Assembly: GCA_963805085.1 (NCBI GenBank)
Contig: CAWDTA010000002.1
Coordinates: 2,074,207 to 2,138,206 of the forward strand
Reading direction: 5' to 3'
Length of the DNA stretch: 64,000 bases
Source of the DNA: an uncultured Veillonellaceae bacterium
Lineage (GTDB): Bacteria; Bacillota; Negativicutes; JARBTT01
This document shows positions 1,516 to 40,512 of this stretch, piece after piece; positions within the stretch are counted from its first letter, which is position 1; each line of letters begins with the position of its first letter. The notes under the pieces are model-generated. The model saw only the letters and a list, made by a program, of their open reading frames with translations, did no database searches and was not told the DNA's origin. Both the position numbers and the translations under genes were made by a program.

Positions 1516-1610
1516 CGCCTCCACCAAGTGAATATGAAATATGGAATATTGCTGGAATATATAAAGTGAGCCGTTAAGACTGATAAGGTCTTAACGGATT
1601 TTGACGTTTA
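1516..1610 (+). repeat. Ala-acceptor-like 3' end CGCCTCCACCA plus terminator module (family C, copy 1)
   Basis: cgcctccacca at 1516-1526, then aatattgctggaatat..aaagtgagccgttaagac-loop-gtcttaacgg, which recurs at ~30231 and ~40451. Confidence 0.8.
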
Positions 1611-1640
1611 TAGTACGCTTACATTGGAGGGGTATTTATT

Positions 1641-1748
1641 ATGGTAAAGAGTGTGTTTGATTTGTTGGCTTCTACGATGGAACATGAAAATTCGTTCATA
1701 CATGAACTGTTACAGTTTTTGTATGACCAAATGACGAAAATTTTATAA
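1641..1748 (+). CDS. Small hypothetical protein (35 aa, MVKSVFDLLASTMEHENSF...)
   Basis: GGAGGGG SD 8 nt before ATG; followed by a hairpin terminator. Confidence 0.5.
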   Translation: MVKSVFDLLASTMEHENSFIHELLQFLYDQMTKIL

Positions 1749-1753
1749 TAAGC

Positions 1754-1791
1754 AAAAAATCCAGCTGAACATAGAAGTTAGCTGGATTTTT
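1754..1791 (+). terminator. Intrinsic (probably bidirectional) terminator
   Basis: aaaaatccagct / agctggattttt inverted repeat; similar hairpin at ~52340-52374. Confidence 0.7.
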
Positions 1792-1974
1792 ATTATAATA
1801 CTTACTTTTTTTTGACACAAAATCATCGTTTTCTGACACCATCTTTACGGTAAATCATGTTAATATCAAGGTGAAAATAATTATGAAGGCGATGACGATG
1901 ATGGATTTTAAAAGCTCTTCACAGGCGAGTCATTCGATAGTCTTATTATCAATTTTAAAAGGAAGATGAATGTT

Positions 1975-2094
1975 GTGACAGAGGCCTTACCTCTCTTTAC
2001 ATTTTGTTTAGGATTTTGCATTGGCTTATTGTTGTGGCCAAAACTTATAGGATTTAAAAAAATAACCGCTACTCTCGTCGAAATAAAGTGTTAG
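1975..2094 (+). CDS. Putative type I toxin peptide (39 aa, one TM helix plus basic tail)
   Basis: AAGGAAG SD; MTEALPLFTFCLGFCIGLLLWPKLIGFKKITATLVEIKC; 3' end overlaps the aaaataaccgcta/tagcggttatttt hairpin. Confidence 0.55.
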   Translation: MTEALPLFTFCLGFCIGLLLWPKLIGFKKITATLVEIKC

Positions 2095-2160
2095 CGGTTA
2101 TTTTGATATAAATTTAGCCTAAGCCTTTGTCAGACGACCGTTTCCAGTACGTCTTTTTAT
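2056..2160 (-). ncRNA. Putative antisense antitoxin RNA
   Basis: Convergent sigma-A promoter at 2167-2195; hairpin 2059-2104 with a U-tract on the minus strand overlapping the peptide 3' end. Confidence 0.5.
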
Positions 2161-2166
2161 ATTTTT

Positions 2167-2195
2167 ATCTTATAACAGGCAAAGTATACTGTCAA
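2167..2195 (-). promoter_or_regulatory. Sigma-A promoter on the minus strand
   Basis: TTGACA-17 nt-TAAGAT read on the minus strand. Confidence 0.65.
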
Positions 2196-2270
2196 GAGGA
2201 TTTAGGATTTAGGCTTTAGACAGAGTGACGGTTCTTGTGTCTAAAATAAGGATACAAAAAAATGAATTAT

Positions 2271-2337
2271 TAAACAAATGGAGCATGTAAAATTCAAGAA
2301 TAACCTGAATTTCACATGCTCTATTTGTTTATTTCTG
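2271..2337 (+). repeat. Long palindromic repeat, family P, copy 1
   Basis: taaacaaatggagcatgt..ttcaag aataa cctgaa..acatgctctatttgttt atttctg; similarity to copy 2 continues to ~2372 (tttgtccg..taatcaagtgaa). Confidence 0.9.
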
Positions 2338-2408
2338 ATTTGTCCGTTCTACCAACGAGGTAATCAAGTGAAGAATGACATTTTTCGCGAATGAAAAGGC
2401 TTGAAGTA

Positions 2409-2570
2409 TTAATTATTTTTATGTTTGTTTTTTTTATATGCTAAAAACTAAATTCTAATGCCGTTTGTAGCTTAATCTTGTCCTCGGTATCAAGGTGATA
2501 AATCTCATCATCGAATATAATTTCTGCTTGATCAAGGAACATTGCCAAGTCCGATTCTGAAGATATAAAC
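2409..2570 (-). pseudogene. C-terminal remnant of an XRE/phage-repressor-like protein
   Basis: Minus strand reads SESDLAMFLDQAEIIFDDEIYHLDTEDKIKLQTALEF, then an interrupted Lys-rich tail; resembles Firmicute XRE regulator C-termini from recall; HTH part absent. Confidence 0.4.
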
Positions 2571-2595
2571 AGCTAGCTACCTGAAACGATTCAAG

Positions 2596-4638
2596 TTACT
2601 TGGACGGCGCGCAATCAAATAATTGTCGTGAGCGTAAGGCAAACATTGCAGTAGCAGGCTGCTGAACATCTGTATCTGTCGATGCATCAGTGGGCTGGGG
2701 CTCTTGCCAAAGTTCAGAAGGCACTTCTTTGCCATGAGAAGTAATCCAAGTATTTAATTCTGGCTGTGATTTAGTGAACATGGAAGAAATCAGAACGTAA
2801 CGTACTTTACCCTCGTTTACCATCTGCTCGAAATCCGCAGCAGAAAGAATATGTTCCATGCCCACAAATCCACCGATAGCCATAACAGCTTGGCCCGTAT
2901 CTAGGATAAATTGGGAAGCTTCGTTAGCATTGCTTACTGCTAAAAAAAACTTTTCCCCGTTCTTATTATCCATTAAGAACTTTTCAAGTTTAACTGTATC
3001 GGAATCCCTATTACTACTACTTGACAGCTTAGGCATAGCCATACCCCGGACGTTTTGTTGTACTACTTTGGGATCAAGGTCTGGGCCAGCGTAGGGAAGA
3101 ACCGAACTACCGCCGTAAATGATTGGGGTCAATGCCCAGACTACCTGAGGAATAAAGACTGTAATGACTGCAATCGCCATCGATGTACGCAGCAAAGTAG
3201 GTCGGCGCAGCGCGTATAGCAGCAAACTCAGAGCAATTATACTAGCGAATCCGAGCACTGGAAGTAGCCAGTATCGCCATTCATCAAACTGCCAGACCAT
3301 CGCTGCCTCAACCGCCAGATTTAACGTTAATGCTAACGGTATGAACCAGCGATTACGGCTACTTGGCTGAAATATGTCAAAGAGTTCTTTTAGCCCAATA
3401 CCAACTAAGGCTGCTAACGCTGGAGCCATCATTACAAGATAATATCGGTGATAATCCACTGCAATACTAAAGAAAATTAATTGTGGCAGCAACCATCCCC
3501 CCCAGAGAAGCAGGGAAATCGTCTTAGCTCGCCCATTAGAGGAATAATCAGACCGCCTCTGCATCGCGCCCGTAAAGAAACCGATTAGGCCCAAAGGCAA
3601 AAGCCAGCTGATTTGTCCACCGATTTGACGTTGAAATAACCTTAAGATACCCGGATTTCCAGTCTCAAAAGAGAAAGAGGCCACTCCGTCTCCAATTGAA
3701 CTCGGTCCACCAAAACCGTCAGCTATTGGCATTGGACCTGGTGTCCCCGGACCGCCTGCAGGATTCGATACTGTTGGTCCAGATGCAGTCCCACTTGTAT
3801 TTCCAGATACTGGTGCACGACTTTGTGGTGTAACTCCCGGTATCTGTACACCTTTGCCAAGGAAATGCATAAGACCATTGTAACCGGTTGCCAATTCCAA
3901 TTCAGAATTAGTTTCACTGCTGCCGACATAGGGACGCTGGCTTTCCGGAGTCAGATCAACTAATAGTGACCACGATAAGGCCACCACCACCAGCAGCACC
4001 GTAGCTCCCCCCAGATTCAATAATCTGTATATTACACTGCGTCCTCCAGCTACAAGGTAAACTAGCCATAAGGCTGGCAAAACAAGAAAAGCTTCCAACG
4101 TCTTGATATTATAGGCTAGCCCCAAGATAAACATGGAAAGATAAAGCCATCTGATCTCATTCCGTTCGACCGCGATAATCATGGCCCAGGCAGCGAACAG
4201 TACCGTCATTGTCAGAAGACTATCAATCGTATTATTACGATTGGCCGCTACTGCTATTGGCATCACTGCTAGGGTAAATGCTGCCGACAACCCGGCTTTG
4301 TTTCCCCAATGACGTTTCACAAGATAGTAGATAATCGCCACTGATAGTATCCCGGCCAGACCTTGTGGAAAAATAATACTCCATCCGTAAAAACCGAAAA
4401 AATAGGCGCTGAGGGTCTGTAGCCAAAAGCCCAATGGTGGTTTATCCACGGAAATGAAGCCCCCAGGATCAAAAGAGACAAAAAATAAATTGTGAGTATT
4501 CATCAGCATACTCTTAATACTTGCGGCGTAGTATAAATTGGCAAAGCCCTCTTGATTGATTCGCAAGAAATTCATTAATGCTGCTAATAACAGTATCGAA
4601 ATAAGCCATACTTTATCCTGAGATTCTCTTTTTATCAT
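2596..4638 (-). CDS. GT-C glycosyltransferase family 39 (ArnT/PMT_2, YkcB-like)
   Basis: YYAASIKSM, DKPPLGFW, NTIDSLL and RPYVGSSETNSELEL motifs; many TM helices; GG-rich loop. Confidence 0.9.
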   Translation of the reverse strand: MIKRESQDKVWLISILLLAALMNFLRINQEGFANLYYAASIKSMLMNTHNLFFVSFDPGGFISVDKPPLGFWLQTLSAYFFGFYGWSIIFPQGLAGILSVAIIYYLVKRHWGNKAGLSAAFTLAVMPIAVAANRNNTIDSLLTMTVLFAAWAMIIAVERNEIRWLYLSMFILGLAYNIKTLEAFLVLPALWLVYLVAGGRSVIYRLLNLGGATVLLVVVALSWSLLVDLTPESQRPYVGSSETNSELELATGYNGLMHFLGKGVQIPGVTPQSRAPVSGNTSGTASGPTVSNPAGGPGTPGPMPIADGFGGPSSIGDGVASFSFETGNPGILRLFQRQIGGQISWLLPLGLIGFFTGAMQRRSDYSSNGRAKTISLLLWGGWLLPQLIFFSIAVDYHRYYLVMMAPALAALVGIGLKELFDIFQPSSRNRWFIPLALTLNLAVEAAMVWQFDEWRYWLLPVLGFASIIALSLLLYALRRPTLLRTSMAIAVITVFIPQVVWALTPIIYGGSSVLPYAGPDLDPKVVQQNVRGMAMPKLSSSSNRDSDTVKLEKFLMDNKNGEKFFLAVSNANEASQFILDTGQAVMAIGGFVGMEHILSAADFEQMVNEGKVRYVLISSMFTKSQPELNTWITSHGKEVPSELWQEPQPTDASTDTDVQQPATAMFALRSRQLFDCAPSK

Positions 4639-4757
4639 ATTATTTGCCTCCTTTGTACATATATAGTGTTAGCAAAACCATTTATTTTACCCTAGTGATT
4701 TACAAAAACTTTAGATTAAAAACAAAAAATGTGCATACTAAATGCGTCAATATAAAT

Positions 4758-4800
4758 TAATCTGACCCCAAAAAGTTAGACAAAAATTTATTAAGCAACT
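4758..4800 (-). mobile_element. IS3-family (IS150-like) terminal inverted repeat remnant
   Basis: tctgaccccaaaaagttagaca, with agttgcttaa (VA-stop, orfB-end-like) on the minus strand. Confidence 0.6.
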
Positions 4801-5132
4801 ACTCTTCGGGAGATTCTAACTCTGAAGGTTGCCACTGTGAAGTATGGATTCTTGTCATTGAGAAAGAGTAGATGTAAAGGCTGATTTTTTGATTTGATTA
4901 GTACACATTAGATAAAGTATATTTCTATATTGACTTATTGTTGACAATCCATATGGTCTTTTAATGTATGATTGGTTCCTCGTGGCATTTGCCTATTTCT
5001 TAATGATTTAACAGTTATCCCTTTAACGTTTATGATGGTCTATCAATTCTCTGCATTATGAAAAATTTTTCCTGGAGCGTATAAGCACACCCGAACATAT
5101 AATACATGACTTGAGAGGGGGGATATTGTCAA

Positions 5133-6650
5133 ATGGAAAGATGGATGGAAGAATACCACAATAAGCCACCTGAATGCTATAAGAGATGCATTGACTCTTT
5201 TAATGTTGAACACCGTATATATGAAGAAGTATGTTGCTACCATATGGTTCGCGTCTGTCCTCGCTGCGGCTCCGAACATGAGTATTATCATCGCCGTTGT
5301 CCGCACTGCGGTTTGGAAATATTTGAGTTGATGAAGATGGAACATCATGAAGGATTCATGCCTGGGTGCAAGCATGAGATGATGGAATATAAAAATGAAA
5401 TTGATACACAACTGCTTCCTTCAACAACAAGCCAAAAGGGGGCTTCTGTCAGGGACTTCTTTTTCAAAGATACATCATTTAATTTCGAAACGTTGCGTGC
5501 AGCTGGATTCGCGGTTGACAACGGCGCCGATATCAACGAAGTGTTCTTGACCGTTGCTGCAATCACGGAGGGCGATGAAGAAGCATGGATGCGGGAGTGG
5601 AAAGCCACCGCAGACCGTATGTATGAACGGGGTAAATATTCCTTCGTACATGGAGACAAGATTAGCGCACGGGAGGCACTCTTGCGTGCTTCGGCCTACT
5701 ATCGCAGCGCTGAATTTTACCGTCGCAAGGATCCCCTAAACGATCCGTACGTTCCTGAGCTGTTCGGTCTTTCTCGCGAGGCTTTTGTGAAGGCGGGCAA
5801 ACTGCTGGATGGCCCCTTCGAGGAAATCTCCATACCTTACGGCAAAGGCAAGCTTCCCGGATACCTGCTCCTCGTGGACGACAGCGGCAAGCCCCGGCCG
5901 ACCCTTATCTATACCAATGGATTCGACTCGACGACTGAGGAAGGCTACTACGTTATTGGCGCAGCCGCGTTACGGCGCGGTTTCAACGTGATCATGTATG
6001 ACGGCCCCGGTACGGGTCGCATGATTCGCGAGAGGAATGTGCCCTACCGTCCGGACTGGGAAGCAGTGCTCGGTCCTGTCATGGATTTCGCTGAGACACG
6101 TCCTGAGGTCGATAAGTCCCAAATTGTGCTATTTGGGTATAGTTTGGGCGGATATCTTTGCGCTCGGACAGCGGCCTTTGATCATCGTCCGGCAGCCATC
6201 GTACTTGACGACGGTATGACGAGCTTTTTCGCGACGTATCCTCCGCTTCCGGAATTCCTCGTCGAGTGGATTAAAGCTGGACACGATGAGCAGGCGATAC
6301 CCGTACTTGAATGGATCAAGAAGCACGACACCTACGCCCGCTGGGCGCTGCAGAATGGTGTGTGGGTGTTTGGCACTTCGAACGAACCGGAATATATCCG
6401 TAAGAGCGAGCAGTTTACCCTCACAACTGAAGACATGCACAAGATCAAGTCCCCCGCTTTAATTCTTCAGGGAGAGAACGACCTTGTGTTCAAGGGGCAG
6501 GCAAGCAAGCTTGCGTCCGAACTAAAAGCTCCGCACAAGCATGTCGTGATGTGGAACGCTGATGGTGCAGGCGAGCACTGTCATATGGGCGCAATGCGTC
6601 TGCTTCATCAGACCATCTTCGACTGGCTCCACACGACACTGGGCGCATAG
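5133..6650 (+). CDS. Alpha/beta hydrolase (FrsA/DAP2-like) fused to an N-terminal His/Cys/Met-rich zinc-ribbon domain
   Basis: GYSLGG nucleophile elbow, NGFDS, GAGEHCH; N-terminus carries CPRC and CPHC; SD GAGGGGG. Confidence 0.85.
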   Translation: MERWMEEYHNKPPECYKRCIDSFNVEHRIYEEVCCYHMVRVCPRCGSEHEYYHRRCPHCGLEIFELMKMEHHEGFMPGCKHEMMEYKNEIDTQLLPSTTSQKGASVRDFFFKDTSFNFETLRAAGFAVDNGADINEVFLTVAAITEGDEEAWMREWKATADRMYERGKYSFVHGDKISAREALLRASAYYRSAEFYRRKDPLNDPYVPELFGLSREAFVKAGKLLDGPFEEISIPYGKGKLPGYLLLVDDSGKPRPTLIYTNGFDSTTEEGYYVIGAAALRRGFNVIMYDGPGTGRMIRERNVPYRPDWEAVLGPVMDFAETRPEVDKSQIVLFGYSLGGYLCARTAAFDHRPAAIVLDDGMTSFFATYPPLPEFLVEWIKAGHDEQAIPVLEWIKKHDTYARWALQNGVWVFGTSNEPEYIRKSEQFTLTTEDMHKIKSPALILQGENDLVFKGQASKLASELKAPHKHVVMWNADGAGEHCHMGAMRLLHQTIFDWLHTTLGA

Positions 6651-6765
6651 CACAAGAAATAGATGAAGCTGCATAGAAAAGACAATTTGACGATTCTATT
6701 TGCCTAAAATTACCATAGGTGAATATCTTATAAAAAGGCAACTCATTTAATCTACTTAATTGAGT

Positions 6766-6834
6766 TAAGCAAATAGGGCATGTACAAAATTCAAGAATAA
6801 CTTGAATAGTACATCCTCTATTTGTTTATTTCTG
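6766..6834 (+). repeat. Palindromic repeat, family P, copy 2
   Basis: aaatagggcatgtacaaaattcaag aataa cttgaatagtacatcctctatttgttt atttctg; followed by gatcgccctacaa (degenerate acceptor-like motif). Confidence 0.9.
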
Positions 6835-7047
6835 GTTTGTCCGATCGCCCTACAAAATAATCAAGTGAAACATAAAACAAGGGGAAGATCAAAACTTTAA
6901 TTGGATAAGAGGTCAATTAGCGAGATATCTGATAGCTGATTTTCGGGGATCAGGCTGGGAAATATATCGAGATAGTATCCGCGAAGCCTGTTTGTAGGGT
7001 ATTGATGCTTGTAAAAAAAAGATTTGAAAGTGAAAGCAGACAAGTTC

Positions 7048-7074
7048 ACATATCACATTGGGGATCATAAAATA
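7048..7074 (+). promoter_or_regulatory. Putative sigma-K promoter
   Basis: AC-16 nt-CATAaaaTA. Confidence 0.5.
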
Positions 7075-7115
7075 GATACTGAGTAAAAAATATATTAAAT
7101 GAAGGAATGATATAC

Positions 7116-7930: not shown

Positions 7931-7959
7931 TTGCATAATGTATATACGAAGTATATACT
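7931..7959 (+). promoter_or_regulatory. mazEF promoter with tandem palindromic operator
   Basis: TTGCAT-17-TATACT overlapping two GTATATAC palindromes (7940-7947, 7951-7958). Confidence 0.7.
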
Positions 7960-7991
7960 ATGGTTATAAAATAATTAGGCAGGTGTTTTCT

Positions 7992-8237
7992 ATGATTATT
8001 AGTCTTTCGAAATGGGGCAACAGTCATGCAATTCGTTTACCGAAAGAACTTATGGAAAAAGCGGAGCTTAGTGCAAATGATAAAATTGTAGTATCTGTTA
8101 ATGGCAAGGAAATTGTGTTAAAGAAATTAGAAGAAAGTCATAGTGCAAAGCTGGTTCAAAGATTTCAAAACTATGATGGTGATTATACGTGTCAAGAGCT
8201 AGAGTCTGGGAGCGACATTGGTAAAGAGGTGTTCTAA
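7992..8237 (+). CDS. mazE: AbrB/MazE-family antitoxin
   Basis: KWGNSHAIRLPK motif; stop overlaps the toxin start (TAATG). Confidence 0.9.
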   Translation: MIISLSKWGNSHAIRLPKELMEKAELSANDKIVVSVNGKEIVLKKLEESHSAKLVQRFQNYDGDYTCQELESGSDIGKEVF

Positions 8238-8572
8238 TGAAGCAGTATCCGCAAACGGGGGATATTATTTGGCTTGATTTTGATCCGCAGAGTGGTGTTG
8301 AGATTAAAAAGATGCGTCCTGCATTGGTTGTATCATGTAATTTCTTTAATGAAAAAATCGGCCTTACTATGGTTTGTCCGATTACTTCTACACAAAAGGT
8401 TTTTCCTTTACATGTAGCATTAGATTCTCGAACAGAGACACATGGCGATATTTTATGTGAACAGTTAAAATCCTTGGATTATCATGCACGTTCATGGGAT
8501 TTTATTGAGCGAGCACCAGATGATATCGTGGACTGTGTGCTTGAAATTATTGGTGACATTATCGGCAGATAA
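8237..8572 (+). CDS. mazF: PemK/MazF-family endoribonuclease toxin
   Basis: GDIIWLDFDPQSGVEIKKMRPALVVS, VCPITS, EQLKSLD. Confidence 0.92.
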   Translation: MKQYPQTGDIIWLDFDPQSGVEIKKMRPALVVSCNFFNEKIGLTMVCPITSTQKVFPLHVALDSRTETHGDILCEQLKSLDYHARSWDFIERAPDDIVDCVLEIIGDIIGR

Positions 8573-8581: not shown

Positions 8582-8626
8582 AATAGACTAAGTGGCGCTT
8601 CTCTTTGTCTCAATTTACCTCCACCA
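8582..8626 (+). repeat. Direct repeat, family D, copy 1, ending in TACCTCCACCA
   Basis: aatagactaagtggcgcttctctttgtctcaatttacc matches 10399-10438; runs into an Ala-acceptor-like end at 8616-8626. Confidence 0.85.
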
Positions 8627-10438: not shown

Positions 10439-10471
10439 ATAAGCAAGCGCATTGTTTAGGAGGGAATTTGT

Positions 10472-10540
10472 TAAATAAATAGAGCATGTACAAAGCTCAA
10501 GAATAACTTGAATTGTACATGCTCTATTTGTTTATTTCTG
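10472..10540 (+). repeat. Palindromic repeat, family P, copy 3
   Basis: aaatagagcatgtacaaagctcaag aataa cttgaattgtacatgctctatttgttt atttctg. Confidence 0.9.
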
Positions 10541-12980: not shown

Positions 12981-13110
12981 GATTGGTTGTTTTACTTTGA
13001 AAAGTACATGGATATATAATTTCTATTTGTAATAGCTGAAATAAATTCATTTAAGTATGCTCAAAATAATGCAGATAACTCTGGTATATATATATAATTT
13101 GGAGGTACGT

Positions 13111-14337
13111 ATGAGTGAACTAATTAAGAATCGGGAATATAGACACAAAGTTTTGAAAGAAATTATTTTGGAACTTCACCAGGGAAAGTCAGTACAGGAA
13201 GTTAAGAGTAAATTTAATGAGATCGCTAAAGGCCTGGATCCAGCTGAACTTTCACTAGTTGAACAGGGGTTAATCAATGAGGGGCTGCCGGTGGAAGAAG
13301 TTCAGCGATTATGCGATGTTCATGCTGAAGTATTCCGGGATGCATTAGAAAAAAATCCCGAAATATCTGCAGAGCCCGGACATCCAGTAGAAATTTTCAT
13401 ATCAGAGAATCAGGCGTTAATGACACTAATGGATAAAGAAATTAAACCGATATTGGACAAGTTGAAACAAGCAATTGAAGCTGTAGAAAAATCAGTTGTT
13501 TTACAGTTGACTGAAAAATTGAATTTGCTGTGGGATATTGACAAACATTACCAGCGAAAGGAGAATTTGATATTTCCGTTTTTGGAAAAATACGAGATTA
13601 CTGGTCCACCCAAGGTGATGTGGGGCGTTGATGATAAAATTAGGAGTTTGTTGAAAGTGACAAAAGAAATGGCTGCTAACTATCAGTCATCTCAAAAGCA
13701 GCCATTAATTAGCAAGATGGAAGAAACATTGGCGCAAATCGAAGAAATGATCTTTAAAGAAGAAAAAATATTTCTGCCGATGGCGATGGAGACACTTTCT
13801 GAGGATGAATGGGGCCAAGTTTTAATGGATAGTGATGAAATTGGTTATTGCTTGATTGAACCAAAACAAAGTTGGAAACCATATCGAGAAAATATAAACA
13901 AAGAGGTCATAAACGGTGCCGATGGGCATTCGGGAGGAAATGTTAAATTTGATACTGGGGTTCTATCATCTGAGGAAATAGATTTGATTTTTAGACATTT
14001 ACCTGTTGATATAACTTTTGTTGATAGAAACGGCATCGTGAAATTTTTTTCTGCTGCTAAGGATCGAATTTTTCCACGCACCAGGACTGTTATAGGTCGT
14101 AAAGTTGAGAACTGTCATCCGCCAGCTAGTGCCCATGTGGTAGAAAAAATAGTGGAAGATTTTAAAAGTGGAAAGAAAGATCATGAAGACTTCTGGATTA
14201 AAATGGGGGAAAAATATGTGTATATTCGTTATCATGCGGTAAGGGACAAAGTGGGAAATTTCGCTGGGGTATTGGAGGTTACTCAGGATATTAAGCCTAT
14301 CCAGGCTATTTCCGGAGAAAAGCGAATTATGGATTAG
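13111..14337 (+). CDS. DUF438 / hemerythrin-like / PAS domain protein
   Basis: LCDVHA, GHPV, HYQRKENLIFP, MWGVDD, C-terminal PAS with NCHPP; start after GGAGG. Confidence 0.88.
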   Translation: MSELIKNREYRHKVLKEIILELHQGKSVQEVKSKFNEIAKGLDPAELSLVEQGLINEGLPVEEVQRLCDVHAEVFRDALEKNPEISAEPGHPVEIFISENQALMTLMDKEIKPILDKLKQAIEAVEKSVVLQLTEKLNLLWDIDKHYQRKENLIFPFLEKYEITGPPKVMWGVDDKIRSLLKVTKEMAANYQSSQKQPLISKMEETLAQIEEMIFKEEKIFLPMAMETLSEDEWGQVLMDSDEIGYCLIEPKQSWKPYRENINKEVINGADGHSGGNVKFDTGVLSSEEIDLIFRHLPVDITFVDRNGIVKFFSAAKDRIFPRTRTVIGRKVENCHPPASAHVVEKIVEDFKSGKKDHEDFWIKMGEKYVYIRYHAVRDKVGNFAGVLEVTQDIKPIQAISGEKRIMD

Positions 14338-14371
14338 AAAGAGTAGGGGGCTCTTTTATTAATATTAATGA

Positions 14372-14436
14372 TAAACAAATAGAGCATGCAGAAAACTCAA
14401 GAATAGCTTGAATTTTACATGCTCTATTTATTTCTG
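14372..14436 (+). repeat. Palindromic repeat, family P, copy 4 (between convergent genes)
   Basis: taaacaaatagagcatgcagaaaactcaag aatag cttgaattttacatgctctattt atttctg. Confidence 0.88.
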
Positions 14437-19627: not shown

Positions 19628-19855
19628 ATGACTGAAAATTATTATTCCGGAGATGATTTAGATGCATCGATTCCAGATAAACATGAGGTTGCTAAAGATC
19701 TCGGAATACCACTAGTCAATGGCTATAACGGAAACCTGACAACTAAGGATGTGGGACGGATTGGTGGTAGAATGGGCGGTAAAATCGGTGGAGAAAAAGT
19801 GAGGAAAATGATCCAAGCAGCTGAAGACCAAATGGCAAGAGAGGATACTCATTGA
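19628..19855 (+). CDS. Alpha/beta-type small acid-soluble spore protein
   Basis: KHEVAKDLG..NGNLTTKDVGRIGG..VRKMIQAAE. Confidence 0.88.
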   Translation: MTENYYSGDDLDASIPDKHEVAKDLGIPLVNGYNGNLTTKDVGRIGGRMGGKIGGEKVRKMIQAAEDQMAREDTH

Positions 19856-20662: not shown

Positions 20663-20670
20663 GAGATACT

Positions 20671-20737
20671 CGACTCCACCATTCAACCGTTCAAATCTAG
20701 AATGCTTATGAAGCCACAAATTTCGTGGCTTTTTTGC
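20671..20737 (+). repeat. Ala-acceptor-like end CGACTCCACCA followed by a terminator
   Basis: cgactccacca 20671-20681; aagccac..gtggcttttt hairpin similar to 54822-54850. Confidence 0.55.
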
Positions 20738-21027
20738 TATATGTGTTTTTAAAAGATCATGGGTCATTGAGCGAGAAGTGTCATAGTGATAAATTAGTAA
20801 AAAAATGCAGGAAATATGACTTAATATGTTGAAATATGACACAATATATTGAAACATCCATAAATTACTTTGAAAGTAGATTATGAATATTTTTAGTAAG
20901 ATCACCTTAATGTACAAGTTATGGTTTATTTATTAGTAGGCGCTTTAGTGGTTGCTTATTAGCGAAAAATAACAGTTGAAACTCGGAGTGGCAATTTTAA
21001 GGCAGAGAAATGGATAGGTGGTGTAAA

Positions 21028-22413: not shown

Positions 22414-23214
22414 GTGGAAAAACTTTTGTCAAAGGTATCATTAGGTATAATAATAGCGGCTTTTTTTATTTTATGTCGTACTGGAAGCGCTGATGCAGCT
22501 AATGTCACCAAAACCTTGGATGAGAATACTAAAATAACGCCACCTGGGGTTATAGTGACAACATGGGATGAAATACCGAGGTTTAAGAAAGGAACCGTTG
22601 TTACACTTAACGAGTATGGTGAGGTTCTTGAAGGGACATTAGATGAAAATATAAGCTTGCCATATGAAAGTGGCAAAGCTCAGGATTCTAATAACACATC
22701 AGCAATGGCGTTCACGCCTCCACCGTTTTATATGTGCACTTACAATACAGAGACTGTGTTAAAATATAGAGTTCTTTCGTTTAAGGGTGGCACAAAAGTT
22801 GTGTTCAATAATAGAGGTGAAGTGATCAAAGGTACAATAAATACTTCTAGTGAATGTATTAATTTAAATCAAACAAATCATATTTTTGTAACTAAAGAGA
22901 TAAGCTTTAATAAAAATGGGATGCCAGTAACTTGTACCTTAGCCGCTGCTTCTTTTCTCCGCCCAGTCGGTTGGTCAGAAATTTTAACTGCAAATTATAC
23001 AAATAATTCGATATGTTCAGGTCTTGTTGAATTTAAGTCTGGAAGTTCAATTGTGTTAAATGATAAAGGGGAAGTAGTCAAAGGGACACTAAACAAAGAT
23101 ACCCAGCTGCTTTCTGTGGGCACATTTAACATTACTGCGCCAAAGCTTTTTGAAGCTAATACCACGGTAGAATTTGATGACAAGGGTATTGTAATAAAGG
23201 CTTCGAAAGAATAA
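22414..23214 (+). CDS. Secreted hypothetical protein with internal beta-rich repeats
   Basis: Signal peptide ending ADA; four FKxGxxxxxNxxGEVxxGT-like repeats. Confidence 0.75.
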   Translation: MEKLLSKVSLGIIIAAFFILCRTGSADAANVTKTLDENTKITPPGVIVTTWDEIPRFKKGTVVTLNEYGEVLEGTLDENISLPYESGKAQDSNNTSAMAFTPPPFYMCTYNTETVLKYRVLSFKGGTKVVFNNRGEVIKGTINTSSECINLNQTNHIFVTKEISFNKNGMPVTCTLAAASFLRPVGWSEILTANYTNNSICSGLVEFKSGSSIVLNDKGEVVKGTLNKDTQLLSVGTFNITAPKLFEANTTVEFDDKGIVIKASKE

Positions 23215-24404: not shown

Positions 24405-24434
24405 TCATAGATTGCAATCTGCTTGGTAATACTA
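24405..24434 (+). promoter_or_regulatory. Putative sigma-F/G promoter
   Basis: TCATA-15-GGTAATACTA; same context as the SASP promoters. Confidence 0.55.
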
Positions 24435-27515: not shown

Positions 27516-27797
27516 ATGGAAAATGGCAAAGGTTGGTTGTATCTTGCGGATGTTATAGACTTGTATAGCGATAAATTTGTAGATAGCTCCATGTCTGCAA
27601 GCCTTTTTGGTACGTTCAAAACTGAGTTGATTTATCATGGAAAATATAGAACCAGGAATCAGGCAGGAGCTGCTATCTTAGATTATGCTGAATCATTCTA
27701 TAATAGAATCCAACATCAGGCAAGGCTTGGATACAATTTTCCAGAAAATTATGAAAAACTTAGAATTTCAGCGTATGGATGTATCTGGCTGAGCTGA
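27516..27797 (+). pseudogene. IS3-family transposase (orfB) remnant with internal deletion
   Basis: GWLYLADVIDLYS joined directly to FGTFKTELIY..FYNR..RLGY; HSDQG region missing. Confidence 0.8.
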
Positions 27798-29542: not shown

Positions 29543-29748
29543 CAAGCTAGCGGTGACAGTACATTTTGACGACTTAAATATTATTTCGAACAGGCCCGAT
29601 GAAACAATTGGGTGATTCGCCTCCGTTGATTAAATACTGCAATTAATTGAATCCGCCAGTTTCGCGTTTTTTTGCTTTGATGATGAAAAATTTAAAGTTG
29701 AATTGGGAATTAGGCTTTAGTTACAACGAGTGTTTTGCATATTGAAGC

Positions 29749-29815
29749 AGGAGTACCTTGCTTATGATTAGCAAAGTACTCCTATTTTTTTAGGTGTTTG
29801 GATGATTTGGTCGGT
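29749..29815. repeat. Repeat family G, copy 1 (terminator plus 3' end of a small gene)
   Basis: aggagtaccttgc..gcaaagtactcct..ttaggtgtttggatgatttgg matches 45881-45946. Confidence 0.85.
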
Positions 29816-30060: not shown

Positions 30061-30228
30061 TTATTCAAAAAAGTCTGCACGCATTGGTATAAATGCATCG
30101 AAGATGATAGAATCATCTTCAAGTGCTACAACTCCATGAATTACATTTTTGGCTGCGTGATAGGAGTCGCCCTTTTTAACAATTTTTTTCTCGTCTCCAA
30201 AGATAAGCTCGAAGATCGATTCCATCAT
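30061..30228 (-). pseudogene. C-terminal half of a KdgF-like cupin, 5'-truncated
   Basis: FELIFGDEKKIVKKGDSYHAAKNVIHGVVALEDDSIIFDAFIPMRADFFE; N-terminal HxH motif absent; break coincides with family C repeat. Confidence 0.7.
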
Positions 30229-30298
30229 GAAAATATTGCTGGAATATAAAGTGAGCCATTAAAACTGAAAAGGTCTTAATGGCTTTTTGCGTTTGTAG
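30217..30298 (+). repeat. Family C, copy 2 (degenerate acceptor end plus terminator module)
   Basis: cgattccatca then aaatattgctggaatataaagtgagccattaaaac..ggtcttaatggctttttg. Confidence 0.8.
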
Positions 30299-30419: not shown

Positions 30420-31268
30420 CTATGCAATTTGCATGATAACAAGATGTGCTGAGACAGGTCTTGTTCCTCCAGCGAGAGGAGTGATGGTTAATGCCGTTGA
30501 ATTGCCAGCAGGATTCCGAACAGTCAGTATTGAATTGACTACGGTTGTCGTCACAAGAGCCATTTCTACTATCTGAGAAGTACCTGTTGCTCGCCCTACT
30601 ACCGTATAGGCTAGGTCAGCCCCATTGAGTGTTAAAATCAGTTGACCAGCTTCGGTCACACTTACCTGAAATAAGATCTGATAAGTGCCAATTGCAGACA
30701 AATTAAATGTGCTAGGCCCAGTACGGGCAATTGCAGTCCCACTAGTAGGTCCATCTTGTGGAAAACTTACGTCGGTACCAGGTGCAACTGTCGCTGCATT
30801 ATCAGGAGGCATCAAGGCAAAAAAGTCTGCAAAACTTAATATTCCTCCGGTAGCACCAGTAAGACCAGTGGCACCAGTGAGACCAGTAGCACCAGTTAAT
30901 CCAGTAGCACCAGTAAGACCAGTGGCGCCAGTCAATCCAGTAGCTCCAGAAGCACCAGTTAATCCGGTAGCACCAGTAAGACCAGTGGCGCCAGTCAATC
31001 CAGTAGCTCCAGTTAATCCAGTAGGACCAGTAGATCCAGTAGGACTACCTGCAGGTCCAGTTGCACCAGTGGCTCCTTGGGCACCTGGTTCCGGGATCAT
31101 AAAACATGTTGTCGGGAATTTATGGCACTTATGGCATTCATCATAATCTTTACATTTTTTACAATAGCGTTTTCTGTTTTTTTTATCATTATTTTGCAAT
31201 ATATCATTTGGTTTTGGGCTATTTATTGTACTTGTATCATTAGTGTCTGATGACTTATCTCTAGACAT
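30420..31268 (-). CDS. Collagen-like exosporium protein (BclA/BclB-like)
   Basis: Cys/Lys-rich N-terminus, GAT/GLT triplet tract, beta-rich C-terminal domain; sigma-K-like promoter. Confidence 0.88.
30848..31085 (-). repeat. Collagen G-X-T tandem repeat (9/18-bp period)
   Basis: Alternating GAT-GLT codon triplets. Confidence 0.9.
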
Positions 31269-31508: not shown

Positions 31509-31538
31509 ACATAGATGACAATCTGGTTGGTAATACTA
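31509..31538 (+). promoter_or_regulatory. Putative sigma-F/G promoter
   Basis: ACATA-15-GGTAATACTA. Confidence 0.6.
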
Positions 31539-31571
31539 TAGCATTATCTTGCATATTGAAGGAGATTAAAA

Positions 31572-31787
31572 ATGACTGAAAATTATGATTCAATGGATGA
31601 ATTGGATGCATCACTTCCTGATAAACATGAGATTGCTAAAGATCTTGGAATACCACTAGACAAGGGGGATAACGGAGACTTGACGACCGAGGAAGTAGGG
31701 AAGATTGGTGGCAGAATCGGTGGAGAAAAAGTAAAAAAAATGATCCAGGCAGCTGAAGACCAGATGGCACAAAGAGATAGTCATTAA
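31572..31787 (+). CDS. Alpha/beta-type SASP, paralogue of 19628-19855
   Basis: KHEIAKDLG..NGDLTTEEVGKIGG..VKKMIQAAE. Confidence 0.88.
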   Translation: MTENYDSMDELDASLPDKHEIAKDLGIPLDKGDNGDLTTEEVGKIGGRIGGEKVKKMIQAAEDQMAQRDSH

Positions 31788-31980
31788 ATCTTTGACAAAT
31801 AAGAAATATCCTTTTTAGCAGTAATCATCGCTCTTGCATCGTTTCCACAAGCATTCGATAATTGAGTGGACATTTTTTAGATACCAGCGAATGCGTAGTA
31901 GTATAATCTCAGATTCGAAATGCTTCTATTTAAATAAATTCTATGACATTTTTTACACCATAAACTGATCAATAATATGA

Positions 31981-34704: not shown

Positions 34705-34726
34705 TATAGTTTCGTATCGAATGATT

Positions 34727-34772: not shown

Positions 34773-34849
34773 AATAAATATGTGGCTCTACCAGGAGAAG
34801 TAAAGCGGTTATCCGCAGCGTCATGAAATGCCATGCAGGGGGAGAAAGA

Positions 34850-36471: not shown

Positions 36472-36501
36472 AACAATTAAAAAAATGAGGGGGAAATAGT
36501 T

Positions 36502-37518
36502 ATGAGTAAGAAAAATATAATGAGTTTCTTGTTAGCTGGGTTACTTCTGACATTTTTAGTTTCAGGTTGTGGTGGAGCAAAATCTGCGGAAAAAGCTGAA
36601 AACTCGAAAGAACCTATGAAAGTAAGGATTGGTTTTACATCCTGGCCGACGAATATGCTCGCTTATGTTGCACAAGAAAAGGGGATATTTCAGAAAAATG
36701 GCTTGGAGGTCTCTCTGAAAGAATTTCCTTCTACTACGGAAAGCAGTAACGCATTTTTATCGGGAAATTTGGATATGTGTACGTATCCAGCTCCAGATAC
36801 CATTCCACCAGTAAGTGAAGGAGCTAAATTCAAAGTCATTATGATGACAGATAAATCTCTAGGATCAGATGGTCTAGTGTCTAAACCAGAAATCCAAAGT
36901 ATTAAGGATCTAAAAGGCAAGACAATAGCGACTCAGCTTTACAGCGTAGATCATATGTATTTACTGACTTTGCTTGATAATGCCGGAATGTCGGCAGATG
37001 ATGTAAAAATTGTGGATATGAGTATGGCGGATGCTGGCAATGCTTTTTTGGCAGGTAAAGTGGATGCTGCTTCTATTTGGGAACCTTATTTAGGTAAAGC
37101 TGTAAATGGTGGTGGAAAACTATTATATTCCACTAAGGATAATCCAGATTTGATTACCGATTGTATTGCTGCTTCAGCAGATATGATCAAAGAGCATCCA
37201 GAGACTGTTACAGCTTTTGTGAAAAGTTGGAATGAAACCGTATTATATTGGCAAAGCAATCGTGATGAAGTAGAAGCTATTATGGCCAAAAAGATGAATG
37301 TTTCACCCAAAGAATGTCATGAGATGATGGATACATTGGTTATTACAACGGCTAAAGATAGCATTGCAGGTTTTACTAAGGCAGACAAGGCTACGTATTG
37401 GGGATATACACAACAGAAAATTGCTTCCTTCCTAAAGGATTTGAAAGTAATCAAAAAAGATGTTGATGCTGCTACAATTATTGATGATACTTTTGTAAAA
37501 AAAGTGGCTAATGAATAA
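36502..37518 (+). CDS. ABC substrate-binding lipoprotein (SsuA/TauA-like)
   Basis: Lipobox VSGC, DLKGKTIA, VDAASIWEP. Confidence 0.9.
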   Translation: MSKKNIMSFLLAGLLLTFLVSGCGGAKSAEKAENSKEPMKVRIGFTSWPTNMLAYVAQEKGIFQKNGLEVSLKEFPSTTESSNAFLSGNLDMCTYPAPDTIPPVSEGAKFKVIMMTDKSLGSDGLVSKPEIQSIKDLKGKTIATQLYSVDHMYLLTLLDNAGMSADDVKIVDMSMADAGNAFLAGKVDAASIWEPYLGKAVNGGGKLLYSTKDNPDLITDCIAASADMIKEHPETVTAFVKSWNETVLYWQSNRDEVEAIMAKKMNVSPKECHEMMDTLVITTAKDSIAGFTKADKATYWGYTQQKIASFLKDLKVIKKDVDAATIIDDTFVKKVANE

Positions 37519-37614
37519 TAAAAATAGCTCTGGCTGTTGGCAAGAAAATTTATAGACAAGCTGTCAGAGCACCTATATTCATCGTTGTGGAGTTTCAAGA
37601 AAAGAGGTTTTCTT

Positions 37615-38850
37615 ATGGAGTTTGATTTGCAGCAGGCGGCAAGAACAGTGATCAGTGAGTTAAGAGAATTAGCTCAGCTTACCTCGAATGAAGATGGGGC
37701 GCAACGGGTAGCCTGGACGCCTATATGGGATCGGTCTGTAGAATGGTTTAAAGGAAAAATGAAGGCAGAAGGTGCAGAAATATTTATTGATGCGGCACAT
37801 AATGTATGGGCCAAAATCCAAGGTGAAAGTGATGATGCCATCGTCATCGGTAGTCATTTGGATTGTGTTCCAAATGGCGGGTGGTTAGACGGTGCATTAG
37901 GCGTTGTGGCCGGTATGGGAATTCTCAGACGTTATGGAAAGAATGGTGTAAAGCCAAAGCATACCCTTTATGTGGTGAACTGGGCTGATGAAGAGGGCGC
38001 GCGCTTTGGCTACAGTTGTGTTGGTTCAGCGGCCGTGAGTGGAGCCATAGATGTGAAAACTATCGAAAGCCTTCGAGACAATAACGATATTTGTTTTGCT
38101 GATGCGTTAAAAATGTATTGTTTAGAGATAAACGATCTTATCAACGCGAGAAAAGAATTTTTGGATAAACCTATGAAAAGCTATCTCGAACTGCATATTG
38201 AGCAGGCACCTTTGCTTGAACAACAGGGGAAAGCGGTTGCCTGTGTGTATGGGATTACGGGATGTCAGCGACAATATATAACTTTCAAGGGGCAGCCGTC
38301 ACATTCCGGTTCTCCGATTGCTATGCGCCATGATGCATTTCTGGCTGCAGCGCAGGCTTCTCTTGGCTTTCGTGAGCTTGGTCTCAAATATGATGCGTAT
38401 TGTACCGTGGGGAAGGTTGAGGTATGGCCAAATGTCGTGACGATATTTCCGGGAACGTGCCGCATTTCTTTGGATCAGCGCTCAATTGACGAGGATGTTT
38501 TAGCGAAGATAGTACAAGAAGCCAAGGTAATCGCCGAAAAAGTAGCAGCTGAGCATGGAGTGGAGGTAACCTTTGAATCAGTCTGGAGTAATCCACCGAC
38601 AATATTTCCCGAAAAGCTAGTGACGCTTTGTCAGGAAGCGGTAGCAGAGGAAACTGGGGACCAGACAAGTATGTTTTCTGGACCGTTGCATGATGCGGCC
38701 GAAATTGCAAAAATTGTTCCGTCGGTTATGATGTTTGCCATGTCTACCAAGGGGGTATCACACTGTAAGGAAGAGGATACACCTGATCGAGAGCTGGAGT
38801 CGGCAATTTGTGCCTTTTTCCGTTTGGCTGATAAGGTGGTACAGGCTTAA
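37615..38850 (+). CDS. Zn-dependent N-carbamoyl-amino-acid amidohydrolase (M20, hydantoinase/carbamoylase family)
   Basis: GSHLDCVPNGGWLDGALG, DEEGARF, ELHIEQ, SGPLHDA, GVSHCKEE. Confidence 0.9.
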   Translation: MEFDLQQAARTVISELRELAQLTSNEDGAQRVAWTPIWDRSVEWFKGKMKAEGAEIFIDAAHNVWAKIQGESDDAIVIGSHLDCVPNGGWLDGALGVVAGMGILRRYGKNGVKPKHTLYVVNWADEEGARFGYSCVGSAAVSGAIDVKTIESLRDNNDICFADALKMYCLEINDLINARKEFLDKPMKSYLELHIEQAPLLEQQGKAVACVYGITGCQRQYITFKGQPSHSGSPIAMRHDAFLAAAQASLGFRELGLKYDAYCTVGKVEVWPNVVTIFPGTCRISLDQRSIDEDVLAKIVQEAKVIAEKVAAEHGVEVTFESVWSNPPTIFPEKLVTLCQEAVAEETGDQTSMFSGPLHDAAEIAKIVPSVMMFAMSTKGVSHCKEEDTPDRELESAICAFFRLADKVVQA

Positions 38851-38855
38851 AAGAG

Positions 38856-38897
38856 ATCCGGTCAAAAAGGCTCCAAGTCATTTTGACCGGGATTTTT
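38856..38897 (+). terminator. Intrinsic terminator
   Basis: tccggtcaaaa / ttttgaccggga plus T-tract. Confidence 0.7.
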
Positions 38898-38989
38898 GGG
38901 CTGAACGCACTCTTTAATAGCTTTTAACTGTGTTATAATAAAATATACTAGACGCTGCCTTATTTATGTTTTTTGGGAGGCCGATAAAA

Positions 38990-40243
38990 ATGTTTTATTC
39001 AGATATAATGAAAATCCCTCAATTAAAAGATCTTACATTATTGGGCGGGAAAGATGGTATGCATCGGCCTATTCGCTGGATATACTTTGCTGATTGTATA
39101 GAATGTCTAGATGATTCCGAAAATTTGGGTGACTGGATTCATGGTGGCGAGCTTATTATTGTAACGCATACCAGTATTACACAAAATATCGCTAAGCTAA
39201 AGCAGTTCATGTATGCGGCAAATGAAAAGAATGCGGCAGGCTTTATTATTCATGTGGGCCGTATTTCATCGGAAATCATACAAACAGCCGACGAGCTTTC
39301 TCTACCGTTATTTGAGCTTTCTCTATCTATAAAATTAGTGGATTTATCACAGATTATTTGCAAAAAGTTAATTGAAGAGGAAAACAAGCAGAGTACCCTT
39401 GAACGAATATTTACTGATCTATTATTTAAAGAATGGAAGAGCAATAGAGATTTATTGTATCAGACTCAGTTTTATGGAATTGATTTCTTGAAATTATTTT
39501 GTATTGCAAGTTTTACAATAGTTTTTCCTGAAAATCAATGGCCAGAAGAGCGCCAATTGGATATATATATAACTAATTTAAATAAATTTATTCAATATGA
39601 ATTTTATAGTATTGACATTCCTAATTTATTGAAATTAGATCAAAATAACAATATTATCGTAATGATCCCTTTACATAAAATTAAGGATAATCTTGCGCAT
39701 ATACTAAAGCGGATAGAGGCACACTTCTGGCAGTTTTATGATTTGAGCTTGAGGGTAGGCATTAGTAATTCTTACAATTCGGCGGAAGATTTGAAAACTG
39801 CTTTTGATGAAGCAGTTATGGCAGTACAAGTTGCTGGATCTATAAAAAATAAGGATAATGTTATTTTTTATAAAAATATCGGTATTTTTTCTATTTTAGC
39901 GGGTGTAGAGAATGAAAAGCTGCTGGATAATTATTATAAATCTTGGTTGGAGCCATTGATGAAGTGCGATGCCCAGCAGGGAAAAACTTTGTGTGGTACG
40001 CTGGAAATGTATTTACAGTGCAACTGCAAGATAGCCGAAACAGCAAATGCACTGTTTATGCATCGCAATACTTTACGCTATCGGCTCGACAAAATAGAAA
40101 GTGTTTTTGGGCGATCACTATCGGACCTTTCCTTCTGCATGGAACTACAGTTTGCCTTTAAAGTGAAAAGTTATCGGGAACGGGTCAAATTAAGCACTGA
40201 ATGGACTCGTAGGGATGGTTCAAAACTGCAGAATAAACCTTGA
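38990..40243 (+). CDS. PucR-family transcriptional regulator
   Basis: N-terminal PucR ligand domain (GGKDGMHRPIRW, GGELII); C-terminal TANALFMHRNTLRYRLDKI HTH. Confidence 0.92.
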   Translation: MFYSDIMKIPQLKDLTLLGGKDGMHRPIRWIYFADCIECLDDSENLGDWIHGGELIIVTHTSITQNIAKLKQFMYAANEKNAAGFIIHVGRISSEIIQTADELSLPLFELSLSIKLVDLSQIICKKLIEEENKQSTLERIFTDLLFKEWKSNRDLLYQTQFYGIDFLKLFCIASFTIVFPENQWPEERQLDIYITNLNKFIQYEFYSIDIPNLLKLDQNNNIIVMIPLHKIKDNLAHILKRIEAHFWQFYDLSLRVGISNSYNSAEDLKTAFDEAVMAVQVAGSIKNKDNVIFYKNIGIFSILAGVENEKLLDNYYKSWLEPLMKCDAQQGKTLCGTLEMYLQCNCKIAETANALFMHRNTLRYRLDKIESVFGRSLSDLSFCMELQFAFKVKSYRERVKLSTEWTRRDGSKLQNKP

Positions 40244-40307
40244 TTTTCCACAGAATACTCAGTGGATTTTATGAATGAGTGAAAGCTAAAATAGCATTAA
40301 TCCATAT

Positions 40308-40376
40308 TAAACAAATAGAGCATGTACAAATTTCAAGATTAACTTGAAGTGTACATGCTCTATTTGTTTATTTCTG
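40308..40376 (+). repeat. Palindromic repeat, family P, copy 5
   Basis: taaacaaatagagcatgtacaaatttcaag attaa cttgaagtgtacatgctctatttgttt atttctg. Confidence 0.9.
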
Positions 40377-40420
40377 TTTTTTTTGTGTGAAAAAGGTTTT
40401 GTGCTTGAATGGTTACGATT

Positions 40421-40512
40421 CGCCTCCACCATGCAAATATCCAGTATGGAAAATATTGCTGGAATATAAAGTGAGCCGCTCACTGATAGGGTCTTAACGG
40501 TTTTTTGCATTT
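40421..40512 (+). repeat. Family C, copy 3 (CGCCTCCACCA plus terminator module)
   Basis: ggttacgatt cgcctccacca then aaatattgctggaatataaagtgagccg..ggtcttaacggtttttt. Confidence 0.85.

Follow-up and report, generated by a model that had tools for sequence, protein, structure and literature searches.

Copies of the ssrA 3' end, their terminators and a repeated hairpin module in a hypervariable region of an uncultured Veillonellaceae bacterium

The ssrA gene and the copies of its 3' end

The insertion of islands behind genes for transfer-messenger RNA (tmRNA) is a well-known route by which bacteria gain accessory genes. The stretch considered here (the window) comprises 64,000 nucleotides from an uncultured Veillonellaceae bacterium (source genome G000, 4.21 Mb; contig C2, positions 2074207–2138206, ending at the contig end), and holds displaced copies of the 3' end of the tmRNA gene, ssrA, among accessory genes. 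The genome has a single ssrA gene (C2:2035621–2035974, plus strand; 181.7 bits against RF00023), which lies downstream of rnr and smpB in the order rnr–smpB–ssrA and encodes the tag peptide ANNEYALAA according to ARAGORN. As the initial annotation of the window would require, it is located upstream on the plus strand: it shares the contig and the strand with the motifs discussed below, and precedes the window by 38.2 kb. The window is the distal part of a hypervariable region that begins at ssrA and spans at least about 93 kb.

The gene starts with GGGGGCG and ends in ...GTTCGATTCTCCTCGCCTCCACCA. The 11-mer CGCCTCCACCA is exactly this 3' end and pairs with the 5' GGGGGCG, including the G3:U pair, which agrees with the earlier description of the motif. 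Seven strings of this type had been listed, at positions 1516, 6843, 8616, 20671, 29614, 30217 and 40421 of the window, as 3' ends of tmRNA or tRNA-Ala genes left as serial attachment-site (att) scars by repeated insertions. All seven are present on the plus strand and outside long open reading frames (ORFs). Judged by their sequence, four of them (1516, 20671, 29614 and 40421) are derived from ssrA, with homology that extends past the 11-mer into one of two flank/terminator types, whereas 6843, 8616 and 30217 are not, or not demonstrably, of this origin. The four tRNA-Ala genes, which are located on other contigs or 1.4 Mb away, end in TGTCTCCACCA and are followed by TTAAAACAACTT; since the ssrA 3' end equals the motif, while these ends differ from it at two of 11 positions and have another flank, the source of the fragments is ssrA and tRNA-Ala is ruled out. 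Within the window, ARAGORN finds no tRNA or tmRNA gene and Rfam yields no match at gathering thresholds, a lax Rfam search returning only chance microRNA-like matches on hairpins.

In the whole genome, the exact 11-mer occurs five times on both strands, namely in ssrA, at 1516 and 40421 of the window, and twice inside ORFs elsewhere. Its two copies in the window compare with 0.03 expected from the background rate (Poisson P ~5e-4), an enrichment of the exact motif over background. With up to one mismatch, five matches are found against 0.92 expected (P ~0.003), and with up to two mismatches 21, against 12.6 at the genome-wide rate and 6.9 in shuffles (maximum 14), these matches being mostly coding or minus-strand noise.

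When ssrA with 120 nt of flank was compared by BLAST with the whole genome, every match in the window at E < 0.05 lay downstream of ssrA on the plus strand; this query found no match between the gene and the window. A nhmmer profile built from the ssrA ends of six other genera, leaving out G000 and its congener G001, retrieved in a genome-wide search 20669–20748 (E 1.5e-5) and 54817–54857 (E 6.6e-4). At least four repeats of the ssrA 3' end stand 39.8–78.7 kb from the gene, and flank-only copies reach out to 93 kb, the short copies of the gene end being spread across about 55 kb downstream of the genuine gene. The following features, in window coordinates, can be distinguished (query positions refer to ssrA plus flank):

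1515–1526, plus strand: displaced ssrA 3' end, 12 nt identical to the gene end, 13 nt counting the first flank base (BLAST 1515–1541 to query 343–370, 89%, E 1.7)
1527–1613, plus strand: type II flank with an intact terminator hairpin at 1571–1597; repeat family D5, with copies at 30232 and 40436
6901–6998, plus strand: internal ssrA pseudogene fragment without 3' end, tmRNA positions 162–259 (BLAST to query 162–259, 85% over 98 nt, E 3.7e-24)
20671–20751, plus strand: displaced ssrA 3' end (10/11) with type I flank, from BLAST (20674–20751 to query 339–416, 64%, E 0.022), nhmmer and alignment
29614–29679, plus strand: displaced ssrA 3' end (damaged CCA) with type I flank, from BLAST (29617–29679 to query 343–406, 81% over 64 nt, E 5e-9) and alignment
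30232–30298, plus strand: type II flank/terminator copy with intact hairpin 30253–30285 (−13.6 kcal/mol), 86% identical to 1545–1613 (E 2e-15)
40411–40431, plus strand: T-loop-like stretch and displaced ssrA 3' end, 12 nt exact, from homology to the 1516 unit
40432–40511, plus strand: type II flank with a degenerate terminator hairpin, its fold no better than shuffles
54815–54865, plus strand: type I ssrA terminator copy, core barely recognisable (BLAST to query 368–417, 80% over 51 nt, E 9.5e-5), with hairpin 54822–54846 (−14.8 kcal/mol, z −4.5)

The internal piece at 6901–6998 and the flank-only copy at 54815–54865 were absent from the earlier list. The former is closest to the ssrA genes of G000, G001 and the relative G004, and is also present in a close metagenome relative. 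Window 1515–1554 is 90% identical over 40 nt to the genuine ssrA end and flank of G004 (E 3e-9). Between the 1516 and the 40421 units, BLAST homology starts at the core and amounts to 82% over 90 nt (E 1e-16), which fits displaced gene ends behind unrelated island ends; an upstream "P-arm" likeness of both units in a MAFFT alignment has no support from BLAST and was dropped. The T-loop-like GGTTACGATT that had been noticed before 40421 is indeed there and resembles GTTCGATTC, the T-loop of ssrA, apart from an insertion of one base and a deletion of 5 nt behind it, although as a T-loop remnant it is suggestive only.

It is hardly credible that the motifs in general are chance occurrences or derive from tRNA-Ala. 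Weak sites such as 8616 and 22715 do behave like background (12.6 matches per 64 kb at up to two mismatches), but the enrichment of exact copies, flank homology with E values down to 5e-9 and 4e-24, and the different ends and flanks of the tRNA-Ala genes argue against this explanation, which is already refuted for 1516, 20671, 29614, 40421 and 6901–6998.

Terminators, the hairpin module and the cargo

Two types of flank follow the displaced ends. Type I, with the hairpin AACCCGCGAATTTCGCGGGTT and then a T-run, flanks the ssrA gene as it is now, and this terminator stands behind the genuine ssrA in 9 of the 30 loci of relatives listed, G000 and G001 counted. In the window, it is found behind the 20671 and 29614 fragments and alone at 54815. 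The hairpin at 20710–20732 (−10.8 kcal/mol) differs from the ssrA stem by compensatory paired changes and still folds, and the stem at 54822–54846 likewise shows paired changes with folding retained, whereas that of the 29614 unit (at 29650) is decayed, with a fold no better than shuffles (z +0.8). Directly in front of the 54815–54865 copy, a heavy-metal P-type ATPase gene (52558–54733) is no longer intact but forms four or more ORFs, with pieces of HMA, E1-E2_ATPase and, twice, Hydrolase.

Type II corresponds to the "module C" of the initial annotation, and stands behind the cores at 1516 and 40421 and again at 30232; its hairpin at 1571–1597 is intact (−16.3 kcal/mol, z −5.3). The suggestion that it represents the own downstream terminator of ssrA did not survive, as that terminator is of the other type, and only the first ~40 nt of type II match a genuine ssrA flank, that of G004. 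A displaced ssrA fragment of G004, 13 kb from its ssrA, has a flank of this type as well. The exact type II flank pattern had 0 matches in metagenome contigs and 0 in viral contigs, and the core with 10 nt of this flank was found in one Oscillospiraceae metagenome-assembled genome, at its genuine ssrA end, where the likeness stops after 10 nt. Some of the displaced terminators appear, from their predicted folds and positions, to end cargo genes now, while others are decayed; their reuse would be a small, clear example of exaptation. A further terminator-like hairpin, D13, occurs in two copies (87% identical), one at 29743–29789, where 0.6 kb separate the 29614 scar from the 30232 flank copy, and the other at 45875–45921, behind a gene for an ECF riboflavin S-component.

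The repeat D2 is a near-perfect hairpin of 65 nt (−33 to −36 kcal/mol, z about −9) that is largely confined to this region: eight of the nine copies in the genome lie in one orientation within a 55-kb stretch (C2:2059180–2114575), and five of them are in the window:

2270–2332, plus strand: D2, fourth of the eight copies of the locus, overlapping the stop codon of a minus-strand XRE remnant
6764–6828, plus strand: D2
10471–10533, plus strand: D2 without XRE gene (−33.2 kcal/mol, z −9.3)
14371–14433, plus strand: D2 without XRE gene
40307–40369, plus strand: D2, 42 nt upstream of the 40411–40431 scar (−35.6 kcal/mol, z −9.1)

D2 overlaps the stop codon of a minus-strand XRE gene (a phrog_8-type regulator), within a module whose order is a small hairpin (D12), D2, the XRE gene on the minus strand, and a divergent DUF6809 gene with a 58-aa ORF. 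One cargo-free unit of this module, 2.26 kb long, is located at window −15026 to −12770. In the D2 copies that lack the XRE gene, conservation ends sharply 4–12 nt after the hairpin. The 16 aligned copies are highly conserved and, since only 3 of 26 stem pairs have changed in compensation, they may just be young. G004 holds three D2 copies, 21–48 kb downstream of its ssrA, and the exact D2 24-mer had 0 matches in genome contigs and 0 in viral contigs. From these features, D2 is read as the putative terminator of a phage-type regulatory module that occurs repeatedly and delimits the remnants of related elements. Its identification as an integron attC site is not supported: its ends, ATTAAAC ... 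GTTTATT, compared by eye only, have one and two mismatches to the consensus RYYYAAC ... GTTRRRY.

The cargo was examined by Pfam scans of 52 ORFs of the window and 40 ORFs between ssrA and the window. It includes a lipase, a glycosyltransferase, hydrolases, MazEF, oleate hydratase and oxidoreductases; a GH31/MFS/AraC sugar block, a GGDEF protein, a collagen-like protein and transporters; and a hybrid-cluster protein, the broken P-type ATPase and remnants of insertion sequences (IS). Neither set of ORFs contained an integrase. In a six-frame search, the only Phage_integrase matches of the genome are at C5:313363, C2:942668 and C4:2593, and its only matches to large serine recombinases are at C2:199559 and C5:702106. 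No tyrosine recombinase is found within ~1.09 Mb on the contig, the nearest being that at C2:942668.

The collagen-like protein (30420–31268, minus strand; Pfam Collagen) holds about 25 GXX triplets encoded by a 9-nt tandem array (repeat family D1), and is presumably a spore surface protein of the BclA type. Two paralogous genes for small acid-soluble spore proteins (SASP) of the alpha/beta type are also present, at 19628–19855 on the plus strand (Pfam SASP, E 3e-16) and at ~31519–31792; the two share 81% identity across ~300 nt (repeats D4 and D7), and a third related stretch lies near 24406 (D10). The IS remnants of the array, comprising a rve_2 fragment, a fragment of an IS200-like Y1 transposase and a split DDE transposase, are located at window 27516–27797 (plus strand) and at G000:C2:2044282–2044884 and 2047735–2049159. 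Only four sequencing runs are listed as sharing sequence with the stretch, each to a small extent (5–6% of words), with no RNA run among them.

The features of D2 bear on the possibility that the array is an active platform for gene capture, in which the cores, D2 or both would be recombination sites for a helper element or for a recombinase whose gene lies elsewhere, the blocks being cis-mobilizable cassettes. This would agree with the two exact cores, which are intact though their flanks differ by ~18%, with the clustering and single orientation of D2 and the sharp ends of its XRE-less copies, with the different order of cassettes in genomes that are 95–97% identical in their shared parts, and with the two large serine and two full-length tyrosine recombinases, all of them encoded outside the locus. 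Nevertheless, no recombinase is linked to the locus, the remaining cores are mutated, D2 is explained more simply as the terminator of a repeated XRE gene, whose stop codon it overlaps, and its stems show little compensatory change, which makes such activity improbable. A more specific version, slightly less probable still, is an ssrA-anchored cassette platform without a recombinase of its own, with blocks of 2–26 kb that would be opened by the XRE/DUF6809 switch, closed by D2, and excised and re-inserted at the hairpins or the 12-nt cores by a recombinase acting in trans, or with the hairpin DNA itself as the site. If true, this would be an integron-like gene-capture system of a new type.

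Three of the listed motifs fail as ssrA fragments or are doubtful. The string at 6843, gatcgccctacaa, is ruled out: read on the minus strand, it encodes ...SLDYFVGRSDKPEINK*, with which the remnant of an XRE regulator ends; intact XRE paralogues further upstream end in ...SLDYLVGRTDKPEINK. The 8616 motif takes its first 4 nt from the repeat D12, of which copies lie at 6690 and 10414, and shares with ssrA only the TCCACCA that follows the D12 end, flank homology being absent. Directly upstream of it, inside the array, stands a MazE/MazF (PemK) toxin–antitoxin pair (7938–8572, plus strand). The 30217 site is ambiguous: the flank copy behind it is real, its terminator module matching that at 1559–1613, but its 8/11 "core" is unverified, and since this core (30217–30227) overlaps the start of a minus-strand Cupin_2 remnant ORF (30061–30228; E 3e-4, below the Pfam cut-off), only the flank copy is secure. 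An unlisted 10/11 match at 22715 lies inside ORF 22414–23214 and has no flank homology. Similarly, the tail "GTTCTACCAAC" of the repeat D3 was rejected as a degenerate tmRNA end, being the coding end (...LVGRT...) of convergent XRE genes; strings like it are found behind the ssrA terminator in three relatives. The two rejected motifs of the earlier list correspond to the following features:

6806–6886, minus strand: C-terminal remnant of an XRE-family regulator, containing the 6843 gatcgccctacaa; its translation ends in ...SLDYFVGRSDKPEINK*
8616–8626, plus strand: TACCTCCACCA, not validated as an ssrA fragment, its first 4 nt from repeat D12

Relatives and the history of the region

Two close relatives were compared, both incomplete: G001, of the same genus, and the metagenome contig Ga0316600_10000047. 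In G001, ssrA and its flank are 99% identical to those of G000, and the position equivalent to C2:2042187 joins directly to window position 4959, 37 kb with the 1516 scar being missing. Of the blocks that the metagenome contig shares with G000, most of the longer ones have 95–97% identity and some others 86–88%, and they stand in a different order; for example, the lactate-utilisation block is linked via one D2 copy to the glycosyltransferase block, and the oleate-hydratase block precedes the block with the internal ssrA piece. Compared with G004, some cargo blocks are 87–91% identical while the flanking core genes reach ~76%, a difference that suggests horizontal exchange.

Among 40 other genomes surveyed, 35 matched the ssrA query and 29 ssrA loci were read. 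G014, G021 and G034 carry same-strand fragments of the gene end at most 20 kb downstream, and G036 and G040 have terminator-only copies. In G014, an ORF for a large serine recombinase of 529 aa (L068:11144–12733, plus strand) overlaps head-on the last 73 nt of ssrA (L068:12661–13010, minus strand), and a displaced ssrA fragment lies 12 kb away from the gene. In G021 and G034, restriction/defence-type islets of 16 and 8 kb stand between ssrA and the fragment, with no integrase among their ORFs of at least 110 aa. The 13-kb island of G004 comprises a group II intron, an IS256-type transposase and cargo, an integrase not having been found in it. This intron (RVT_1 and GIIM maturase) begins ~5 nt after the genuine ssrA terminator (L018 ~1925 onward; L057:7102–8376). 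Integration at the ssrA end happens in this class, and remnants without an integrase are common.

We consider it probable that islands accreted in tandem at ssrA by serial integration, and that the region is their decayed array, later reshuffled at the hairpin/XRE repeat. Foreign elements would have integrated site-specifically into the 3' end of ssrA, each of them supplying its own copy of at least the last 12 nt of the gene together with a terminator of one of the two types, so that every integration would have shifted the previous 3' end and its terminator downstream. The internal piece at 6901–6998 would stem from an element with a longer portion of ssrA, all recombinase genes would have been lost since, and the array would have been reshuffled by recombination at the 65-nt hairpin joined to the XRE/DUF6809 regulatory module. 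The four validated sites hold, on their anatomy, as putative fossil att scars of this accretion: they are read as att scars because they fit the signature of tmRNA islands and the precedent of Dehalococcoides, and they look like fossils because no recombinase is found from ssrA to the contig end and the breakpoints lie elsewhere. The flank-only copies at 30232 and 54815 and the internal piece probably belong to the remnants of accretion, too.

Several observations weigh against this history. No match to Phage_integrase (PF00589) or Recombinase (PF07508), not even a fragment at E ≤ 0.001, was obtained in a six-frame search of C2:2035621–2138206, and no ssrA-like sequence is present at either end of the 37-kb indel of G001. 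Recent change runs via the D2/XRE repeats and not via the ssrA scars, since the breakpoints relative to both G001 and the metagenome contig are D2 modules or gene ends (e.g., C2:2070033). In G004, the HAD and HD genes from either side of the 20671 scar adjoin each other without a scar, and the hemerythrin gene (13057–14337) and the crp-type gene (47076–47756) are neighbours, although in G000 they are 32.7 kb apart with four of the listed sites between them; a simple history in which the oldest element is the farthest and the newest stands next to ssrA consequently does not hold. Moreover, single terminator copies exist far from ssrA, at C2:1594692–1594749 (plus strand, type I-like) and C2:388136–388179 (minus strand, type II). 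Each of these distant copies stands directly behind an ordinary gene, and both a relocated scar and convergence are conceivable. As no integrase is left and the indels do not end at scars, serial integration is a conclusion from anatomy and precedent. The data show directly how the fragments are related to ssrA and its flanks, how they are oriented and enriched, that integrases are absent and that close relatives have been reshuffled; that site-specific integration produced the fragments, which kind of recombinase acted and in what order things happened is inferred. The earlier view of serial att scars is accordingly retained in part: displaced ends with ssrA-type flanks stand at four of the seven sites, but an integrase is lacking and the indels of relatives are placed elsewhere.

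These same observations favour the main rival, according to which the units are passengers of gene blocks that were imported or duplicated by homologous or illegitimate recombination, for instance via D2/XRE, and were never made by integration in this lineage. Such blocks would have been taken up from the ssrA regions of other strains, and the fragments would not be local att scars. The breaks at D2 modules or gene ends, the array without a recombinase, the terminator copies elsewhere in the genome and the synteny conflicts with G004 would all be expected. However, the units contain the last 12–13 nt of the gene and, in one case, 98 internal nt, and must for this reason have been first made at an ssrA gene; all of them are in the orientation of ssrA and downstream of it, and relatives carry recombinase-bearing islands at this very site. 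For these reasons, the passenger origin is regarded as rather unlikely, and accretion at ssrA remains the preferred reading.

Whichever the route, about 90 kb of accessory metabolism, regulators, a toxin–antitoxin pair and spore-coat-type genes are gathered at one site in an anaerobic spore-former. Only two features of this case are unusual: a hairpin/XRE module confined to the locus, and the fact that recombinases are entirely lacking. Further study would be best spent on the module, where the breakpoints of near-identical genomes fall.

Comparison with known systems

Chromosomal integrons are arrays of cassettes with attC hairpins of the consensus RYYYAAC ... GTTRRRY. As in these arrays, the blocks described here each close with an imperfect hairpin of ~65 nt; the hairpins resemble one another and share one orientation, and a MazEF toxin–antitoxin pair is found inside. 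Unlike them, the region has neither an integron integrase nor attI, its hairpin ends depart from the R''/R' consensus, and its cassettes are 2–26 kb long, with their own regulators, genes on both strands and a hairpin that overlaps a stop codon.

Accretions of cis-mobilizable elements (CIMEs) consist of tandem related elements between att-like sites, with members that lack a recombinase of their own. The region resembles them in the att-like sites between tandem elements without their own recombinase and in the XRE phage-type modules at the element ends, but differs in that no functional integrase-bearing partner element is present, and mobility is putative. The concept of these integrase-less elements in accretion is cited in the Dehalococcoides study discussed below (PMC3146451).

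The principle that an intact tmRNA gene with a displaced 3' fragment marks an integrated island is set out in the Islander work (PMC4383910). Islands of this type share with the present region an intact ssrA, 3' fragments in the same orientation downstream, accessory cargo between them, and a fragment followed by what formerly followed the gene. However, Islander requires an integrase for each island, and here there is none in ~100 kb; integrase-dependent island finders would miss the whole array. The number of scars is also uncommon, with at least four here, whereas arrays of three or more are reported there in only four cases among 3919 islands (PMC4383910). Of the two close relatives, both incomplete, neither lacks an island whose ends coincide exactly with att repeats.

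The closest precedent is that of the ssrA islands of Dehalococcoides (McMurdie et al. 2011), which form tandem arrays with many 20-bp repeats of the ssrA end within 100 kb downstream (PMC3146451). There, 16 of 31 islands hold an integration module with a serine recombinase, and the others are read as cis-mobilizable or fixed (PMC3146451). Both systems share tandem blocks within ~100 kb, direct repeats, many blocks without an integration module and a zone of high plasticity. They differ in phylum and cargo, and in the repeats, which are conserved over 20 bp in Dehalococcoides, while here 12–13 nt are exact in two copies and the rest are mutated. No DsiB-type serine recombinase is present in the G000 array, and the integration module, with a large serine recombinase beside attL on the reverse strand, is absent from G000, such an arrangement being found only in G014. 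Compared with those islands, the region studied here adds two alternating flank/terminator types and an internal ssrA piece, and it would place this clostridial clade beside Dehalococcoides and the enteric bacteria, in which ssrA has long served as a hotspot of accretion.

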